The translations under genes were made by a program, and so were the position numbers. Shown in pieces: positions 1 to 6,401 of a stretch of DNA of 64,000 nt. Positions within the stretch are counted from its first letter, which is position 1. Every line of letters starts with the position of its first letter. The notes beneath the pieces were generated by a model. That model ran no database searches. It worked only from the letters and a program-made list of their open reading frames with translations, and was not told the origin of the DNA. This DNA comes from a virus. Location: positions 32,001-96,000 of the IMG/VR virus record IMGVR_UViG_3300035681_000001; one strand, given 5' to 3'.

Positions 1-780
1 ATAGATATGGAAAGAACCTTAGACCCAGACCAAGTAAACAGAACGGGTATTGATAACGAGTTGTTCCACCGAGCTTTTCCTAACTACGGAGAAGAAGCTA
101 TTGATCTAGGTCTAGAAGCAGCTACTGCAGGCTCTAAGTTAATCATTATTGATTCTGTACCAGGCTTAACCCCTAAGTCCACAGAAGAAAAAGTCGAAAA
201 AGACTCGGAAGCTAGGTCTATGGGAGCCGTAGCCGGGCTGCTTACTAGACTAATGGGAAAAATCATCAAAGGTGTTGAAACCTCAGAATGCTCTTGGATA
301 TTCCTAAACCAAGTTAGAGACAAAATGAACTCTCCTTATGGAGGGGTCCACACACCAGGTGGTCACGCTAAAGATCATATGTGTTCTTGGCGTTTACAAA
401 TCACACACGCTATTCAAGAAAAAGATAAAGAAGGCGTAATTACCTCGTACATCAAAGGCCTAAAAAACAAGACTGCCCCAGCAGGTCTTACTGGGGAACT
501 AGTAATAGAAAAAGGTATCGTAAACGCAGCGGCTTCCTTAGTAGATGGTGCTATTCGAGCTGGGCTCTTAGAAAAGGCGGGCAGTTGGATCAAGTTCTCT
601 AATGAAGTAGTAGAAGAATTCAGCCTACCCAAAGCCAACCTAGCTCAAGGTAGTGTAAAGGCCGGCGCTGAACTGCTAGCTAACCCTGAGTTGTACAAGA
701 TCCTATACAACCGCTCTTTGATAGCTAGCGGTGTACTGCCTGACCGAATTCCTAATTATTGGAAACTGACTAATGAGTGA
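1..780 (+). CDS. recA: RecA-family recombinase, 5'-truncated by the window edge
   Basis: Frame is open from base 1 (IDMERTLDP, cf. RecA IDAEHALDP). Contains LIIIDSV (Walker B), IFLNQVRDK and TPGGHA, matching the RecA NQ.R.K and TPGG.A motifs. Confidence 0.9.
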   Translation: MDMERTLDPDQVNRTGIDNELFHRAFPNYGEEAIDLGLEAATAGSKLIIIDSVPGLTPKSTEEKVEKDSEARSMGAVAGLLTRLMGKIIKGVETSECSWIFLNQVRDKMNSPYGGVHTPGGHAKDHMCSWRLQITHAIQEKDKEGVITSYIKGLKNKTAPAGLTGELVIEKGIVNAAASLVDGAIRAGLLEKAGSWIKFSNEVVEEFSLPKANLAQGSVKAGAELLANPELYKILYNRSLIASGVLPDRIPNYWKLTNE

Positions 781-1027
781 CTATAGCTCGCTAGAAACAC
801 CAAAACTAGAACCAGCCGACCAGCAGTTTTTCACTTACGCAGCCCGAGAAGCTGACCTAGCCACAGCTGAATGTCGACAAGCTAAAGCGCTATTTGAGGA
901 AGCAGCTGAAAAGCAAAGAACCAAAGTAAACGCTATACAAGAATTTTCTACTTACTTAACTAAAAAATACCAACTAACAGACGATCAAGACATCGACCTA
1001 GACGGCAACATCATTAATCGAACTTAA
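773..1027 (+). CDS. hypothetical protein
   Basis: 84-aa ORF coupled to both neighbours. Confidence 0.7.
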   Translation: MSDYSSLETPKLEPADQQFFTYAAREADLATAECRQAKALFEEAAEKQRTKVNAIQEFSTYLTKKYQLTDDQDIDLDGNIINRT

Positions 1028-2380
1028 GTGGACTTTCTGTATTGTAACGACCTCGGTACTTATCGTACTGGGGTTTTATCTTTGGGGTGTGAGCCTTTAG
1101 CGTTAGACACAGAAACTATGGTCCGACCTGAATATGAAGGTCGAGGCGGCAGTGCTCTGGACCCTCATACCGGTAGGATATCTCTAGTTATAGTCCAGCA
1201 CTTAAATCAAATACCGATCATCTTTGATCTGGTTTGTTTAGAAGCTCTAGGTTATGACCCAGAACCGCTAGTTAAAGCTTTAGACACAGCCGAGTACTTA
1301 CTAGGAGCCAACATCAAGTTTGATGCCAAACAACTCCGAGGAACTTTAGGTTACACACCTAAGAAACTTAGAGATGTGATGCTGCTAGGTAAACTAATCA
1401 GCAACGCTACTGGATCTAAAGCTGGTAAAGCAGTAGGGCACTCGCTAGGAGACCTAACGCGTGAATACCTAAACGTCCACTTGGCAGGTAAAGGCACTTT
1501 ACAAAAGTCTACCTGGGCTACCGGAGTAGAATCTCGTACGTTAACTAACGAGTGGTGGTTAGAAAAACTAACTTACGCAGCCAACGACGTAGCTTACCTA
1601 TTTCCCTTACAAGCTGTAATGCTACCGATACTACAAACACCACTACCCGATTCTCCACTTACTCAAACAGGTAACACTGGAGCATGGGGGTTTGGTATGA
1701 CCATAGCAGTACAACGAGAGTTTAGGTTGTTACCAGTAACAGCCGAGATGGAATACAACGGGCTGCCTGTTTCTAAAGACTTTATGACTGCTTTTCAAGA
1801 AGCAGTCAAAGACTCTCTGGATTCTTTAGGGGTATATCTGTCCATAGAACTAAAACTAGACACTCCTCAAAAAGACTGGTCCGGGCGGTTAGTGCCTTCT
1901 TTAAAAGCCTTAAAAGTACTGCGCTCAGCTAGTGGGTTACTAGACCTCATACGTAAAGCTCTAGACTTCCAGAAAATAGACAACGTTCAAGCAGCCGTGC
2001 TGCAACGTATGCTGTCCATCCTAGACGCACTGGCTGCCGCTAGCACTGCAGACGATAGCACACCCACTACAGGTGAGCTGTTTATTAACGAAGACGAAGA
2101 AACCTTATACTCAGAATTAACCGAACTAGAACACTGTAAGTTAATAGCAGCCTCTCCTATAGTCCAGGCTATTTTGGACTTTAAACGGCTGACTAAACAA
2201 GATGGAATGGATTTGCGTAAATACATAAACCCAGCTACTGGTAGGATCCATCCTAGTTACAGTCAAATAGGTGCTGCTACCGGACGGTTTGCTAGTTCCG
2301 GGCCTAATGCCCAACAAATCTCCAACAAAACCAAGGTATTACTAGATGGGTTCCAAACCCTTGGATTGGCCTCTACGTAA
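1028..2380 (+). CDS. polA: family A DNA polymerase, N-terminal part (3'-5' exonuclease + thumb)
   Basis: Exo motifs ALDTET, GANIKFD and YAANDV; EMEYNGLPV; GRIHPSYSQIGAATGRFASSGPNAQQI (PolA TGRLSS..PNLQNI). Stops before motif A. Confidence 0.9.
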   Translation: MDFLYCNDLGTYRTGVLSLGCEPLALDTETMVRPEYEGRGGSALDPHTGRISLVIVQHLNQIPIIFDLVCLEALGYDPEPLVKALDTAEYLLGANIKFDAKQLRGTLGYTPKKLRDVMLLGKLISNATGSKAGKAVGHSLGDLTREYLNVHLAGKGTLQKSTWATGVESRTLTNEWWLEKLTYAANDVAYLFPLQAVMLPILQTPLPDSPLTQTGNTGAWGFGMTIAVQREFRLLPVTAEMEYNGLPVSKDFMTAFQEAVKDSLDSLGVYLSIELKLDTPQKDWSGRLVPSLKALKVLRSASGLLDLIRKALDFQKIDNVQAAVLQRMLSILDALAAASTADDSTPTTGELFINEDEETLYSELTELEHCKLIAASPIVQAILDFKRLTKQDGMDLRKYINPATGRIHPSYSQIGAATGRFASSGPNAQQISNKTKVLLDGFQTLGLAST

Positions 2381-2702
2381 AAGGTCAATAGGCTTTGAAA
2401 ACAACCTCATATTAAAAGAGCTGCTACTGCTAGGGGCCTTTAAAGAAAAAAACGCTATAGCTTGGCCCTCAGACACTGGCTTGACAGAATCAGAAACTAA
2501 AACACTACTAGAGTCCTTACGTAAGAAGAACCTTATTCGCGGCCGAGCACCTTATAAGCTAACCACTAAAGGAAAGAAAATAGTAGCCGATCACTACCAC
2601 CGTTTGTTAGCTGAGTATGAATCTAGTAGAACCCAACTACCAGTTTCTGGCAACACCCAGACAATCATTCGTAACGAAGGGGAAAGTTTGGATTTCAGTT
2701 GA
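2346..2702 (+). CDS. small winged-helix-like protein nested between the two polymerase ORFs
   Basis: TGLTESETKTLLESLRKKNLI...YKLTTKGKKIV resembles the MarR/PadR-type wHTH recognition helix plus the Y.LT.KG wing. Confidence 0.55.
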   Translation: MGSKPLDWPLRKRSIGFENNLILKELLLLGAFKEKNAIAWPSDTGLTESETKTLLESLRKKNLIRGRAPYKLTTKGKKIVADHYHRLLAEYESSRTQLPVSGNTQTIIRNEGESLDFS

Positions 2703-3300
2703 CTTTTCAGGTCAAGAGCTAATGGTAGCTACAGCCTGGTCAAAAGATCCGGCTATGGAGCGAGCTTTTACAGAACCTGAAGTCTTAACCTTACCTGATG
2801 GTACTACTTACAAAAACCCATACGCTGACCTGCACACACTAACGGCAGTTAAGTGCTGTGCCCCAGCATTATTCCAGGGAGTCCCAGAACACGAGTGGGT
2901 AAGTAACGCTAAAGAAAACGGATCTAGACACAACGGTAAAACTACAAACTTTGGGATTATCTTTGATCAAACAGCAGAATCTCTATCACTACTCAACCAC
3001 GTTAAACTGACTGAAACTGAGCAATGGGTAAAAGGCCACAAGCAAACCTACGCAGGTTATCACCACTGGGCTGAAGAATACGGAGCTATAGCTGCCGCTC
3101 GCGGCTTTGCTGTTAGCCCGGTGTCTAAAGCTATTCGCTGGGTAGATGAAGAAAACTCCAAAGGTGGTGGGGAATCGCCAGCTAGAGCTGCGGTTAATTA
3201 TGCCATCCAAGGGGAATCTAGTATGATAACCAAGGAATGTTTGATCAGGTTATATGAAACTTTGCCACCAGAAATAAGAATACTAAATACAGTCCACGAT
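2617..3300 (+). CDS. polA: family A DNA polymerase, C-terminal part, exon 1
   Basis: Motif A VDFSGQEL, motif B RHNGKTTNFG, VNYAIQG, and motif C first half LNTVHD ending at 3300. Confidence 0.9.
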
Positions 3301-3413
3301 AGATTTTGTCGTGGTTAAATAACTTTAATTGCTGGAAACTCCTTAGAGCTTAACTCACCACAACGTAGTCGGCAACGACAAGCGTGACGGTTCAAAAAGA
3401 GTTATGATTGGGT

Positions 3414-4004
3414 CTAGTACTTTGTCTGACTAGCAGTGTAAGACTGAAAGCTCCACTTGTATTGGTAACAGCTAATGGGACAGGGACCAATCCACTCAAG
3501 AAAAGCAGGAATGCTCTTTTTAGAGAGGAATATTTTACCTTTACCGTCAGTTCGTGAGCGAAAACCCAACGACTTGAGTTGAATCACAAGTCGTTGTCGT
3601 TCAGCCAATGTAAAAGAATGGGCTGCAAATGCAATTTGTCTTAGGTATCCGTTGCAGGAGTCAAAGCCTCCATCACCGATGTACCACATAGATGCAGCTA
3701 AAGGGGTTAGTTGTAAATCCCGAGGAAGAATCTTTTTCTTCTCCGGATACCAGCGATGCCAAAAAGGTATGAGAAAATCCGATCTCAATGAGTCTACTTG
3801 GTAGGTTACACCTGTTGAGTAACCATTAGGTTTAGACTGGAGGTTAGGAGAAAAAGGAACGGATTTGCCTAGCTGGGCTCTAACCCAAATAGAAAAGTCC
3901 TTTTCTTTACAGTTATAACCAAATCTCGGGCGCCCTAAAGGTGTTTTCGAGTAGTTGGTTAAATAACCATCTCCTAACAGCAGACCATCCAGTAAGCTTC
4001 TCAT
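3414..4004 (-). CDS. LAGLIDADG (double-motif, LAGLIDADG_2-type) homing endonuclease, antisense within the intron
   Basis: Motifs LDGLLLGDGYL and LAASMWYIGDGG; 196 aa. Confidence 0.88.
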   Translation of the reverse strand: MRSLLDGLLLGDGYLTNYSKTPLGRPRFGYNCKEKDFSIWVRAQLGKSVPFSPNLQSKPNGYSTGVTYQVDSLRSDFLIPFWHRWYPEKKKILPRDLQLTPLAASMWYIGDGGFDSCNGYLRQIAFAAHSFTLAERQRLVIQLKSLGFRSRTDGKGKIFLSKKSIPAFLEWIGPCPISCYQYKWSFQSYTASQTKY

Positions 4005-4040
4005 TAAGCTAGCAACATTTGCTTAAGTTTAGCACTATCG

Positions 4041-4070
4041 GTTATACAGAAGAAAAATCCTGATGGACAA
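4041..4070 (-). promoter_or_regulatory. candidate sigma70-like promoter for the antisense endonuclease
   Basis: Minus strand TTGTCC-N18-TATAAC, about 37 nt upstream of the ATG at 4004. Confidence 0.4.
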
Positions 4071-4248
4071 TCAGCAGCCAAGGGTCTAGGCTGTAACCAG
4101 CTTAGATCAAGGTTCATCGGCTATCGCGGAAGCGAGTAGGACTCAAGAGAGTTCGAAACGGGTTACTAGTGAAAACTAGAAGATATAGTCAGAACTTTTG
4201 CGAAAGCAAAAGAAGCCTTACGGAATCGGTAAGGCTGCAACACTAACG

Positions 4249-4476
4249 GAGATCAATTTTGAGGCGCCAGGCCGATGTTGGCTAGACTTAGATCGCTCTA
4301 AATTTGATAATAACTTACTAATAAACCCTGTGTTTGCTTACGATGAACAAGCTCTAGCTACAGCAGAACGCATTACGCAATTAATGGTAAACACTGAAAC
4401 CGAGTTCTTTCAGGCTGCCGGCTCACCTATTCAAGGTCGAGCCGAATACGCTATAGCCCCTTATTGGAAACACTAG
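4249..4476 (+). CDS. polA: family A DNA polymerase, C-terminal part, exon 2
   Basis: EINFEAP completes motif C (VHD-E); ends at TAG 4476. Confidence 0.88.
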   Translation, partial: EINFEAPGRCWLDLDRSKFDNNLLINPVFAYDEQALATAERITQLMVNTETEFFQAAGSPIQGRAEYAIAPYWKH

Positions 4477-4494
4477 TACTCACGCACCTAAGCA

Positions 4495-4830
4495 ATGGTA
4501 GAAATCCAATTCAAAGCTCTAACCACCGTAACAGTGGCCATTACGGAACCTGTTTACTCTAAAATAAGCAGTGTACGCTCTAAATATAACAAACTAGAAT
4601 CGTTCCGTAGGTGGGATGGTGAGCAGTTTTTAATAATAGAAAAGAAAACCACTTCTAAAGGAGTGGTGTCTGTAACCCTTACAAAAGAGATTTATAAAGC
4701 CTCACTAATAAAAAGCGAAGAAGCCTCAGAGCAAATTCTAGGTAAAGGTAAGTACGCACTCACTAAAGAAGAATTCTATACAGAACTAAAGGCAGCCATC
4801 GGACCTTTCTTAGCTACTATGGAAGGCTAA
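4495..4830 (+). CDS. hypothetical protein
   Basis: 111-aa ORF in tandem array. Confidence 0.75.
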   Translation: MVEIQFKALTTVTVAITEPVYSKISSVRSKYNKLESFRRWDGEQFLIIEKKTTSKGVVSVTLTKEIYKASLIKSEEASEQILGKGKYALTKEEFYTELKAAIGPFLATMEG

Positions 4831-5030
4831 TGCCGCTACACCTGGTAACCTATGAACTTACCGATACTACAATAAGTTATTATCCGAAGACTAAATTAGT
4901 GTTAGTTGATTGTGCTGACGAAGAAGAAGCGCTGGCCTTACTAGAAACCAAACACCCTATTACTTATTGTGGCGTTGAAATTCTAGAGTTCGAGCCAGTA
5001 TTAAGTAACCAAAACACAAAGAAAACCTAA
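4830..5030 (+). CDS. hypothetical protein
   Basis: 66-aa ORF with TAATG coupling. Confidence 0.65.
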   Translation: MPLHLVTYELTDTTISYYPKTKLVLVDCADEEEALALLETKHPITYCGVEILEFEPVLSNQNTKKT

Positions 5031-5066
5031 AAATATATAAAACCAAAATCCAAAAAACCAAAACCA

Positions 5067-6401
5067 ATGAGTGCCTCACGAATTGATTTAGCTCAAGTTA
5101 CAGACTTAACTGAAGCTACTAGGTGGGTGTATGACCCCGACAAAGAACTATCTGTAGGTGCTGCTTTAAGGCATGTACACCTAGAGCAAGTTAGTAATGA
5201 AAAAGTAGCCCTGACGGCTTACGCTACAGGTCAAGCTTGGTTGCGCCGGCTAGCACCAGCTAGTGGTGTAATAGGTACCCAGTACCTCTATGATGGAGAA
5301 GACTTGATCTCCCGAGTAGCAAACCAACAGATCTGGCGTAAGTCTTCTTTACGTATAAGTCAGAACCGTAACGGATCACTAAAACTAGAATGCGTACAAC
5401 GTATTGAAGCTGACGGAACTGTAGTTTCTGCAGGAAATATCAACCTCAATACGTACTCAGGTGACTTAGATGATTTCTCAATACCCGACGCCAGTGATTA
5501 CGTATTAGTAGCTCACACTGATTTAGGGTACGACTTTAAGAGTCTAGCTAGGGTAGCTGGAGAATATTCCGCTCTAAGGGGAGATTCAGCTAACCGAGCA
5601 GTATGGTTGTGCCTAGAACAAAACCTACGTCTAAGCGTAACCGAGCGGGCTTCTGACCGAGGTATTGGGCTGTTAACTCACACCTTACCTACTACTGTCG
5701 TACACCCTATACGTCTAGGCTTTCAAGGCCGGCACCTTAATAAAATAGCAGACGTAGTAGAAGAAAGCCCAGTACTTACTATCCACGTTGATTCTTTAGA
5801 CAACCCTACACGAGTAAGGTTTAGTGGTTTTGGTGGGTGGGTAGACCTACCGGTAGTAGCCGAATACCACTGTAGAGCTCTTTCTAGGGGAGCTATGGGT
5901 GTGTTTCTAGGTGAAAACTACACACGTACTGAATCTGAATCCGTAATTTTCAACGTAGAAGACCTACAAGACGGCATAGCTATCCAAGCTCCTAAGAAAG
6001 GAGCCACTCGCAATGACGTAGTATTAGAACTACAAGACCAAAAACTGTTGGTATCAAAGCGTTCTGACATACGTAGGTCTGAGCTTTCTACCATCCCGTT
6101 ACATGAAGCTAGCACCGTAGAGTGGACAGACGTAGTAGTAGATCACACTTACTTAACAGATGGTGTAACTGCTTTAGATTCTTTCTTAAAAGCAGCTGAC
6201 AAAAGAGCACGGTTACCTGAACTAACTGACGAACCTACTACACCTATAAACGTAAGGTTGGTCTCAGTAACACAATCAGTGTCTAGTAGTAACGTGCATT
6301 TGTTGCTAATCCGACCCGCTATCGACCAAGACTACGAGTGTCAAGTAGCACTTATAGTAAACACCAAAGCCCAAACTAATGACTACAACGAAGCGGACTA
6401 A
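5067..6401 (+). CDS. putative DNA sliding clamp (DnaN/beta-clamp-like)
   Basis: Three-fold repeating helix/strand pattern reminiscent of DnaN (LRHVHLE..VALTA; RAVWLCLEQNLRLSVT; VIFNVEDLQDGI..NDVVLELQDQKLLVS; VVVDHTYLTD). Lies near a DnaX-like gene. Confidence 0.45.
   Translation: MSASRIDLAQVTDLTEATRWVYDPDKELSVGAALRHVHLEQVSNEKVALTAYATGQAWLRRLAPASGVIGTQYLYDGEDLISRVANQQIWRKSSLRISQNRNGSLKLECVQRIEADGTVVSAGNINLNTYSGDLDDFSIPDASDYVLVAHTDLGYDFKSLARVAGEYSALRGDSANRAVWLCLEQNLRLSVTERASDRGIGLLTHTLPTTVVHPIRLGFQGRHLNKIADVVEESPVLTIHVDSLDNPTRVRFSGFGGWVDLPVVAEYHCRALSRGAMGVFLGENYTRTESESVIFNVEDLQDGIAIQAPKKGATRNDVVLELQDQKLLVSKRSDIRRSELSTIPLHEASTVEWTDVVVDHTYLTDGVTALDSFLKAADKRARLPELTDEPTTPINVRLVSVTQSVSSSNVHLLLIRPAIDQDYECQVALIVNTKAQTNDYNEAD

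Follow-up and report, generated by a model that had tools for sequence, protein, structure and literature searches.

A family A DNA polymerase divided within its polymerase domain between two genes, with a winged-helix gene in the break, in the genome of a freshwater phage

The 64,000-nt stretch of viral DNA analysed here (the window) carries a family A DNA polymerase (PolA) locus made of three open reading frames, each in its own frame and overlapping its neighbour (Table 1), an arrangement first described in a sequence-only reading of this DNA and confirmed by the ORF listing of the window. The N-half frame stops 19 residues past PNAQQI, the middle frame starts at the first ATG downstream of an in-frame TAG, and the C-half frame is closed upstream by a TAG at 2608-2610 and opens at 2617; the middle gene overlaps the N-half gene by 35 nt and the C-half gene by 86 nt. 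A promoter and terminator scan of positions 1-5200 gave counts no higher than expected by chance.

Table 1. Features of the split polymerase locus (window coordinates)
Feature	Position	Strand	Description
PolA N-half	1028..2380	+	450 aa; 3'-5' exonuclease, thumb and first part of the palm to PNAQQIS, followed by an 18-aa tail
Winged-helix gene	2346..2702	+	118 aa; conserved core at about residues 15-85
PolA C-half, exon 1	2617..3300	+	13-aa head, motif A (DFSGQEL), fingers with motif B, motif C to HD
Group I intron	3301..4248	+	948 nt, between HD and E of motif C
LAGLIDADG homing endonuclease gene	3414..4004	-	antisense strand of the group I intron
PolA C-half, exon 2	4249..4476	+	75 aa; E of motif C to the C-terminus

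Family A polymerases belong to the most thoroughly studied enzymes and are regarded as single-chain proteins. In the window the polymerase domain does not lie on a single polypeptide, being divided between two genes that are in different frames here and unlinked in relatives. The N-half matches PF01612 (E 5.7e-11) and, above the cut-off, profile positions 69-136 of PF00476 (DNA_pol_A), and the C-half matches positions 142-336 of the latter profile, also above the cut-off, which leaves about 5 profile positions at the break. Alignment of the N-half to residues 522-588 of Taq polymerase puts the equivalent of the cut at about T588 to R595, past PNLQNIP (579-585) and ahead of RRAF and the motif A aspartate D610; the residue beside the cut is equivalent to Taq R587, which we take to contact the primer strand. 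The 3'-5' exonuclease motifs ExoI-III are present in the N-half (DTE, NxKFD and YAANDV), motifs A (DFSGQEL) and B (GKTTNFG) of the C-half are intact, and motif C (HD|E) is restored once the intron is removed. The family A polymerase of this phage is therefore encoded by an N-half gene and a C-half gene, with the cut inside the polymerase domain, and the earlier proposal of a two-chain enzyme is supported by the Pfam boundaries, the Taq mapping and the separate halves of relatives. Additionally, no other PolA, PolB or DnaE was detectable in the 96%-complete genome, and from the intact exonuclease and polymerase motifs, the co-variation of the halves described below and the position as sole polymerase we infer that the split PolA is a functional enzyme.

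Apart from its unusual layout, nothing suggests that the break arose from sequencing or assembly errors in one ORF or from a decaying pseudogene, and this explanation has a negligible probability. Contigs from four independent lake-water metagenome runs contain 0 indels in 1900-4500, and two of them bridge the junction without gaps (2029-2819 in run X4 and 1900-3277 in run X6), which excludes the two single-base insertion errors considered in the sequence-only reading. The same layout recurs in many independent assemblies, and all catalytic motifs are intact in what is the sole polymerase of the genome; an error-made split is refuted by the indel-free contigs together with the relatives.

The C-half is itself interrupted by a group I intron at 3301-4248. 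A DNA contig of run X6 joins 3300 directly to 4249 and represents an intron-less allele in which exactly 948 nt are skipped; the boundary signs are in place (T3300 at the end of the 5' exon and G4248 at the end of the intron), exon 2 aligns to the uninterrupted C-half of the relative L004, and Rfam RF00028 matches 3895-4212, although its 28 bits (E 4.8e-4) fall short of the gathering score of 50. The intron boundaries and the joining contig also agree with the predicted 303 aa of the spliced C-half. The antisense ORF within the intron matches Pfam LAGLIDADG_2 (E 4.1e-17), and in contig variants the segment from about 3349/3363 to 4064 is replaced by 32-45 nt, indicating that the endonuclease gene is a separable insert. 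A stretch of the intron (3317-3412) shows 76-82% identity to stretches located at broken or interrupted genes and in unannotated gaps of many phage genomes, which are probably introns as well.

The presence of a real group I intron 600 nt downstream in the same gene, and an interval of about 320 nt, plausible for a small intron, might suggest that the region of about 2336-2659 is likewise an ORF-carrying intron (group I or II) whose splicing restores a single polymerase mRNA. Removal of the interval at the RNA level had also been considered in the sequence-only reading; the indirect evidence speaks against it, and the intron reading is very unlikely and close to refuted. For this interval, a search of Rfam at E<=1 gave no hits in the window, nor did one at E<=0.01 for the junctions in seven relatives, whereas the true introns of the same genes were detected; its folding z-score of -0.29 indicates no excess of RNA structure and its substitutions follow a coding pattern. 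Moreover, the four runs together contain an intron-less allele for 3301-4248 but none for about 2336-2659, and the halves of relatives are parted by opposite-strand genes or by 46 kb.

Comparison of related polA loci revealed the same split throughout the clade, with the halves parted in some relatives. The 83%-identical relative L002 has the same three-frame layout. The closest relatives of the N-half (n = 50, E<1e-10) are all of 364-482 aa or 582-803 aa, the longer ones containing intein domains in all but one case, and the relatives of the C-half (n = 13) measure 202-356 aa. In L004 the C-half is located 1.6 kb downstream of the N-half, past two opposite-strand genes, and in G002 about 46 kb separate the two; L015, L019 and L023 carry other genes between the winged-helix gene and the C-half, and the spacing in linked relatives with parted halves is 0.5-1.6 kb. 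The identities of the N-half and C-half co-vary (r 0.97 over 7 lineages). The halves are separate genes, and the sequence comparisons indicate that the split is old and clade-wide.

A single chain could also be made from such a locus through recoding (frameshifting or ribosome bypass) or through protein trans-splicing by a split intein: T4 gene 60 bypasses 50 nt, and a split intein joins cyanobacterial DnaE (PMC2677866). Both mechanisms are rejected here, and the probability left to them is minimal. The gap exceeds 230 nt and is itself a conserved gene, and the halves are unlinked in relatives. With a split intein, the first half would carry an N-intein of about 100 aa and the second a C-intein of about 35 aa, whereas the 18-aa tail and 13-aa head fall well short of the length of intein halves and do not have their terminal residues; the inteins of the clade, as found by Pfam in the N-halves of relatives, are contiguous and located elsewhere.

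The gene in the break, overlapping both halves, had been described as winged-helix-like, and its codon pattern, its homologues and a model of the L004 homologue agree with that description. In the part of the gene that overlaps neither half, the substitutions with respect to L002 number 45, 21 and 6 at codon positions 3, 1 and 2, showing that it is under purifying selection. It is present as a single copy in this genome, and its product shares 42% identity with the L004 homologue. Homologues are present in L004 and G002, and a search of 1.84 billion representatives gave 41 cluster representatives, nearly all of 62-108 aa, the longer forms being one 239-aa protein with an uncharacterised extension and two repeat artefacts; the median pI of the family is 9.5. 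The gene abuts a polymerase half on all nine long contigs examined; in 7 lineages it follows the end of the N-half closely, at a distance of -59 to +12 nt, the order N-half, winged-helix gene, C-half is repeated on the contig of P0013, and in G002 the gene overlaps the C-half by 4 nt. Distant members on short contigs (L016, L018, L022 and L024) have no polymerase half within the available sequence of about 1 kb, and the ORF that follows the N-half of L003 shows no similarity to the winged-helix protein by BLASTP. The gene thus encodes a member of a real, basic protein family of about 75 aa linked to polymerase halves.

The AF2 model of the L004 homologue (39-row alignment) has a pLDDT of 83 and best matches the Rio2 N-terminal, MarR and TubR winged helices (Z 9.6-10.1, rmsd 1.7-2.5 Å, 72-75 of 75 residues), with Z 10.1, rmsd 2.0 Å and 75 of 75 residues for those of MarR type. 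The predicted topology is that of a MarR-like core (a helix, a helix-turn-helix and a beta-hairpin wing). The model of the window protein, built from a 7-row alignment, has a pLDDT of 66 and gave weak MarR/LysR rows (E about 0.03) in Foldseek against the PDB. HTH_45 and wHTH-PRTase_assc match 19 and 18 of the 39 members respectively, and in the window and L004 proteins their scores (14.5-16 bits) are below the cut-offs of 25.5 and 27. The family profile found weak generic winged-helix matches alone among PDB sequences (S19e, Sso10a, eS10 and PadR), the ESM Atlas feature search returned only unnamed clusters, and no PHROGs family was found for the winged-helix proteins or for Ma-LMM01 gp179.

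The winged-helix gene could be no more than what a decayed homing endonuclease or other selfish cassette has left of its DNA-binding part, retained through linkage or as an autorepressor, with no part in replication. It occupies the very point of the break, at a PolA motif that is among the most strongly conserved, and the polymerase gene is a frequent target of mobile elements: L003 and many relatives have an intein 6 residues upstream of PNLQQ, and introns interrupt motifs A, B and C. There are also precedents in mobE within nrdA and in a GIY-YIG gene within a split gp43 (PMC2677866, PMC3045599). Against this, none of 39 members has a Pfam match to a nuclease domain (GIY-YIG, HNH, LAGLIDADG, Vsr-like or others), no NUMOD or IENR-type match exists in the family and none of its 41 representatives is fused to a nuclease. 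The family does not have the make-up of a free-standing homing endonuclease and, with neither a nuclease domain nor a known endonuclease DNA-binding module, its proposed origin from a mobile element is an argument from position. The purifying selection on the gene also speaks against a remnant, as does its retention across lineages whose polymerases are 30-45% identical, despite rearrangements on either side. Such an origin without a present role in replication is considered unlikely.

It has also to be considered whether the winged-helix protein is an obligatory third subunit, positioned at the new termini next to the primer-template duplex, that tethers the halves to each other or increases processivity, making PolA heterotrimeric. 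The gene adjoins a polymerase half on the nine long contigs whichever half is retained, coupled synthesis is suggested by the overlap of the frames, its rate of divergence is similar to that of the polymerase, its product is basic and the cut is beside the Taq R587 equivalent, a primer-strand contact. However, phages of the Ma-LMM01 type are split alike and lack the gene (no match at E<=1 in the whole Ma-LMM01 genome), so that its product is probably not an obligatory bridge between the halves; furthermore, the adjacent tails and heads are not conserved and the distant members on short contigs have no polymerase half nearby. A third subunit of this kind is a possible but rather doubtful reading. 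A three-protein PolA holoenzyme, in which the winged-helix protein is needed for assembly or processivity of a replicative PolA working with a beta-type clamp, is improbable as well; if true, it would be a subunit architecture undescribed for family A. Complex prediction with the L004 N-half, C-half and winged-helix protein (alignments A3-A5) scored 0.00 in two runs and carries no weight either way.

The suggestion that the QTLGL sequence in the tail of the N-half echoes a clamp-binding motif found no support. QTLGL is present in the window and in the 83%-identical L002 alone, the tails of L003, L004, L015, L019 and Ma-LMM01 differing in sequence and length; the tail past PNxQQ(I/Q)(S/P) is not conserved and no conserved beta-clamp-binding motif (QL[SD]LF or QLxLxL) is found at the C-terminus of the N-half. 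In Ma-LMM01 the PolA is accompanied by a clamp loader and a homologue of the beta clamp (PMC3201878). In the window, the 444-aa ORF at 5067-6401 matched neither the Ma-LMM01 clamp homologue gp176 (BLASTP) nor the PDB (phmmer).

A PolA split into two genes, rebuilt non-covalently and accompanied by a winged-helix accessory factor or regulator is probably the best explanation of the locus. The family A polymerase was split long ago in the loop that links the PNLQNIP-type motif to motif A, probably by a small cassette that inserted at this highly conserved site with a winged-helix gene. The cassette would have given the N-half its stop codon and a short new C-terminal tail, and the C-half its start codon and a short new head. 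Since the Ma-LMM01-type phages share the cut and have no homologue of the winged-helix gene, this gene may not have arrived with the original insertion. The separate chains would be translated from overlapping reading frames, whose arrangement is compatible with coupled translation, and would re-associate without covalent bonds to form one active site, to which the N-half would supply the exonuclease, the thumb and the TGR/PNxQQ part of the palm, and the C-half motifs A, B and C. The winged-helix protein, inherited with the halves, would most likely act as a nucleic-acid-binding accessory factor or as a regulator of the replication module.

A clade of large freshwater phages including Ma-LMM01 would thus build its sole replicase from two chains cut in the palm, with half of the active-site surroundings on each. 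Such a system would offer a natural case of polymerase fragment complementation, in which an essential enzyme is rebuilt from pieces, and would illustrate how essential genes survive invasion by mobile DNA. A further question is which role this small and so far uncharacterised family of winged-helix proteins has at a replisome.

The closest phage in GenBank is the Microcystis phage Ma-LMM01 (27-30% identity), whose genes gp180, gp179 and gp178 show the same cut: gp180 ends 17 aa past FNAQQIS, gp178 starts just before motif A, and a small ORF overlaps both polymerase genes with all three frames in use, as in the window. The middle ORF (gp179) encodes 51 aa and, unlike the gene of the window, is unrelated to the winged-helix family. 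The three genes are annotated as '3'-5' exonuclease' (gp180), 'hypothetical protein' (gp179) and 'DNA polymerase' (gp178), which hides the first part of the polymerase domain carried by the 'exonuclease' gene; the present analysis corrects this misleading annotation for Ma-LMM01-like phages. A literature search of limited coverage found no description of the Ma-LMM01 split. In the available part of the 2023 family reclassification, a single kind of natural split is described, at the boundary of the exonuclease domain with the polymerase domain (PMC10201439). It concerns T7-like cyanophages (S-SBP1-like, clade B), whose PolA is encoded by two genes and predicted to re-associate, and the available text on them does not mention an intervening gene (Czernecki et al., 2023, PMC10201439; PMC12695635). 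Unlike this domain-boundary cut, the cut of the window PolA falls within the palm, with the TGR/PNLQNIP region on one side and motif A on the other. In a Zobellviridae-related phage group, different from that of the window phage and likened to it by gene layout alone, PolA is also encoded by two genes with a small uncharacterised ORF between them, for which the available portion of the authors' text offers no explanation.

Broken replicative polymerases, sometimes with an intervening gene, are also found in family B, where gp43 of some T4-like phages is split and carries GIY-YIG or Vsr-like endonuclease inserts; many such 'fractured genes' are rejoined by split inteins, and a model predicts the eventual uncoupling of their halves (Dassa et al., 2009, PMC2677866). 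The window PolA differs in having no intein halves and no nuclease, and the uncoupling predicted for fractured genes is seen in G002.

The closest analogue is nrdA of Aeromonas phage Aeh1, split by mobE, for which Friedrich et al. reportedly described the order nrdA-a, mobE, nrdA-b in 2007. In both cases an essential replication-related enzyme is cut in a conserved region, in Aeh1 by an inserted gene. The insert of Aeh1 is an HNH homing endonuclease and the split is found in one phage only, whereas the insert of the window PolA is without a nuclease, the split is clade-wide and the halves have drifted apart in some genomes. The separate chains of Aeh1 NrdA reassemble without splicing, and activity requires the tails that they gained from the insert (Crona et al., 2010, PMC3045599); a similar reassembly of separate chains with insert-derived tails is proposed for the window PolA.

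The plus strand of the window holds three overlapping ORFs between 1028 and 4476, each in its own frame (see table); two encode the N-half and C-half of a family A DNA polymerase (PolA), and the third, placed between them, a predicted winged-helix protein. The N-half ends 19 residues past PNAQQI, the C-half frame is blocked upstream by a TAG (2608–2610), and only about five positions of the DNA_pol_A profile are missing between the two matches. In an alignment with Taq polymerase, the N-half covers residues 522–588 and the C-half of a relative begins at R595, which places the cut in a short loop that follows PNLQNIP and precedes RRAF and D610. The three-frame arrangement with a cut inside the polymerase domain, as described in the sequence-only reading, is therefore borne out by the ORFs, the Pfam profile and the Taq alignment. 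The N-half end and middle ORF start (2316–2380) are nearly invariant with respect to the related locus L002, with three differences in the 35-nt overlap (2346–2380) compared to roughly 15–30% differences in the regions beside this stretch; this near-invariance is consistent with dual coding or with a signal for coupled translation. Additionally, motif B of the window (~3010–3030) reads NFGIIF, with a Phe where L002 and another related locus, L004, keep a conserved Tyr (the Taq Y671 position, by reading).

Features of the split polymerase locus and mobile-element sites in related polymerase genes (window coordinates unless a related locus is named)
Feature	Location	Strand	Description
PolA N-half ORF	1028–2380	+	450 aa; 3'-5' exonuclease domain and first third of DNA_pol_A profile (positions 69–136)
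Middle ORF (winged-helix gene)	2346–2702	+	118 aa; starts at first ATG past an in-frame TAG
C-half ORF	2617–3318	+	DNA_pol_A positions 142–336; starts 13 residues ahead of PRQSF and motif A (DFSGQEL)
Group I intron in C-half	3301–4248		948 nt; splits motif C between HD and E
LAGLIDADG_2 gene inside intron	3414–4004	minus	E 4.1e-17
Mobile-element site	L003 5001–6749		Clade polymerase gene
Mobile-element site	L014 300–1292		Clade polymerase gene
Mobile-element sites	L002 6925–7675 and 8045–8828		Clade polymerase gene

The source virus record comprises 189,763 bases (96% complete), and the window stretch is present in 24 lake-water metagenome runs. A sequencing or assembly artefact is ruled out by the contigs of four runs, none flagged as a possible source, which over 1900–4500 showed base substitutions only and no inserted or deleted letters (contigs without gaps span 2029–2819 and 1900–3277), so the split stands. 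Nor is the interval 2336–2659 an intron: an Rfam search gave no match at E ≤ 1, its folding is no better than that of shuffled sequence (z = -0.29), and at seven related loci Rfam detected group I introns inside the C-halves only and none at the half junctions. Moreover, between the window and L002 (83% identical), the part covered by the middle ORF alone carries 45, 21 and 6 substitutions at codon positions 3, 1 and 2, which reads as a clear coding signature, and the polymerase sequences on either side are biased likewise in their own frames. No contig of the four runs skips the interval, although the allele lacking 3301–4248 is present. Recoding was also rejected, as was a split intein, whose halves would need much more length than the 18 aa of the N-half tail and the 13 aa of the C-half head.

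The same layout as in the window was found in L002. In L004 (47% identical), the N-half overlaps a middle-ORF homologue of 75 aa, and an uninterrupted C-half lies 1.6 kb downstream, past two opposite-strand genes. In G002 (the contig of locus L003), the N-half carries an intein, ~46 kb separate the halves and the middle-ORF homologue immediately precedes the C-half, overlapping it by 4 nt. Further contigs, located through winged-helix homologues, showed the orders N-w-C (twice), N-w-thymidylate kinase-two ORFs-C, N-w-HTH_7 protein-C and N-w-three ORFs-C (N, N-half; w, winged-helix gene; C, C-half). The 50 closest N-half relatives (E < 1e-10) measure 364–482 aa or 582–803 aa, the longer ones harboring intein domains in all but one case, and no uninterrupted full-length enzyme was found among them; 13 C-half relatives measure 202–356 aa. 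The related polA loci, with the same or an unlinked split, agree with the earlier claim and, together with the half-length genes, show that the split is ancient, runs through the whole clade and has made two genuinely separate genes.

The group I intron of the C-half matches Rfam RF00028 under the gathering score (28 bits, E 4.8e-4), with T3300 and G4248 in place at its borders. These borders are fixed because a lake-metagenome DNA contig fuses 3300 directly to 4249; with the intron removed the C-half measures 303 aa, as previously calculated. In further contigs, ~3349/3363–4064 is swapped for 32–45 nt, so that lake metagenomes contain three DNA alleles side by side: intron with LAGLIDADG gene, intron without endonuclease gene and precise intron-less. 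The endonuclease gene is antisense to both its host intron and host gene, an orientation that is probably unusual for phage introns. The 5' part of the intron shares 76–82% identity with short stretches of many phage genomes; these fall in unannotated gaps or beneath genes marked as disrupted and are themselves probably introns. The clade polymerase is a hot spot for mobile elements: a mini-intein past the TGR motif, six residues ahead of PNLQQ, in G002 and likewise in many N-half relatives (PF14890, PF07591 or PF13392), and group I introns, which interrupt motif C in the window, L002 and G002, motif B in L002, and motif A in G002, where the intron comes with a 261-aa ORF.

Sequence comparison indicates that the middle ORF is a real gene, 42% identical to its L004 homologue over 60 residues, a divergence about equal to that of the polymerase. 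A profile search of 1.84 billion representatives gave 41 matches, nearly all of 62–108 aa and none fused to a nuclease or polymerase; the window phage genome has a single copy. The family is assigned in neither Pfam nor PHROG, and winged-helix matches with a listed score are sub-threshold. The structure model of the L004 member (pLDDT 83) superposes full-length on MarR-type, Rio2 N-terminal and TubR winged helices (Z ~10, rmsd ~2 Å), and this modelling indicates a winged-helix fold for the middle protein. Family members are basic (median pI 9.5; >8 in 34/39), and the best-conserved residues lie in an N-terminal GF(G) motif and in the putative recognition helix and wing (L..LK.K.LI.G..PY.LTKKG). 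The last ~30 residues of the window version overlap the C-half and are not conserved, being probably a by-product of the overlap. Two contigs carry unusual forms: in L017 (1150–1869), member P0032 (239 aa) has a ~160-aa C-terminal extension of unknown kind, and the 1.2-kb contig L022 carries a second, partial domain (723–836; profile positions 37–72, E 6.5e-12) ~240 nt downstream of the full gene.

Each of the nine contigs that measure at least 8 kb has the winged-helix gene next to a polymerase half, the N-half in eight and the C-half in G002. The gap to the N-half ranges from -59 to +12 nt in the seven lineages measured, and the two annotated genes overlap on the contig of member P0013. No polymerase half was found near distant family members on five short contigs (~1 kb available each); on one of them, L017, a weak match to the motif A region of the C-half (E 0.006, 1850–1960) begins where the P0032 gene ends.

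Between them, the two chains preserve the exonuclease motifs and polymerase motifs A, B and C, N-half and C-half identities co-vary in seven lineages (r 0.97, the pairs not being phylogenetically independent), and no second family A, B or C polymerase was detectable in the window phage genome; the split enzyme should work. Downstream of the C-half, a 444-aa ORF (5067–6401) has no Pfam or PDB sequence match, and relatives carry ORFs of 453–462 aa without Pfam match at the same spot. For the Microcystis phage Ma-LMM01, the literature points to a beta-type clamp and clamp loader nearby (PMC3201878); BLASTP of the window ORF against its clamp homologue gp176 gave no match.

Regarding the origin of the split, a cassette with the winged-helix gene probably inserted at a conserved PolA site. 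The N-half would then have been translated into the insert as far as the first stop, which would explain why the tails vary in sequence and length by lineage and overlap the winged-helix start, while the opposite end of the insert would have supplied the new C-half start. The chains would re-associate non-covalently as in Aeh1 NrdA, split by mobE, where such reassembly was shown experimentally and the insert-derived tails are essential for activity (PMC3045599). Alternating hydrophobic residues form a short run in every tail, and also in every head just ahead of the (N/T)PR motif; these runs might pair as strands. The sequence-only reading also took QTLGL in the tail for a possible clamp-binding motif, which is not conserved among N-half tails and is abandoned, while its two-chain polymerase and real winged-helix gene in the break are retained. 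A nucleic-acid-binding accessory or regulator is favored for the winged-helix protein; an obligatory bridge between the halves is less likely, as the gene is missing from Ma-LMM01-type phages, whose polymerase is split in the same way. Taken alone, two chains are very probable; the full account, with origin and winged-helix role, is likely.

Ma-LMM01 and its kin, the nearest GenBank phages (27–30% identical), have the same cut as the window: gp180 (annotated "3'-5' exonuclease") ends 17 residues past FNAQQIS, gp178 begins just ahead of motif A, and a 51-aa ORF unrelated to the winged-helix gene overlaps both. Elsewhere, split replication enzymes whose parts flank another gene include family B gp43 of T4-like phages, nrdA/mobE and fractured genes with split inteins (PMC2677866, PMC3045599). 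A T7-like cyanophage PolA is split between the exonuclease and polymerase domains and is reported as the first split of the family (PMC10201439), and in OM43 phages PolA is likewise split, with a small ORF of unknown nature that was left unexplained (PMC10580990). Split phage enzymes are already known; unlike these, the window clade has a cut inside the palm, conserved clade-wide, with halves unlinked in some members and a winged-helix partner without nuclease, four features that set it apart.
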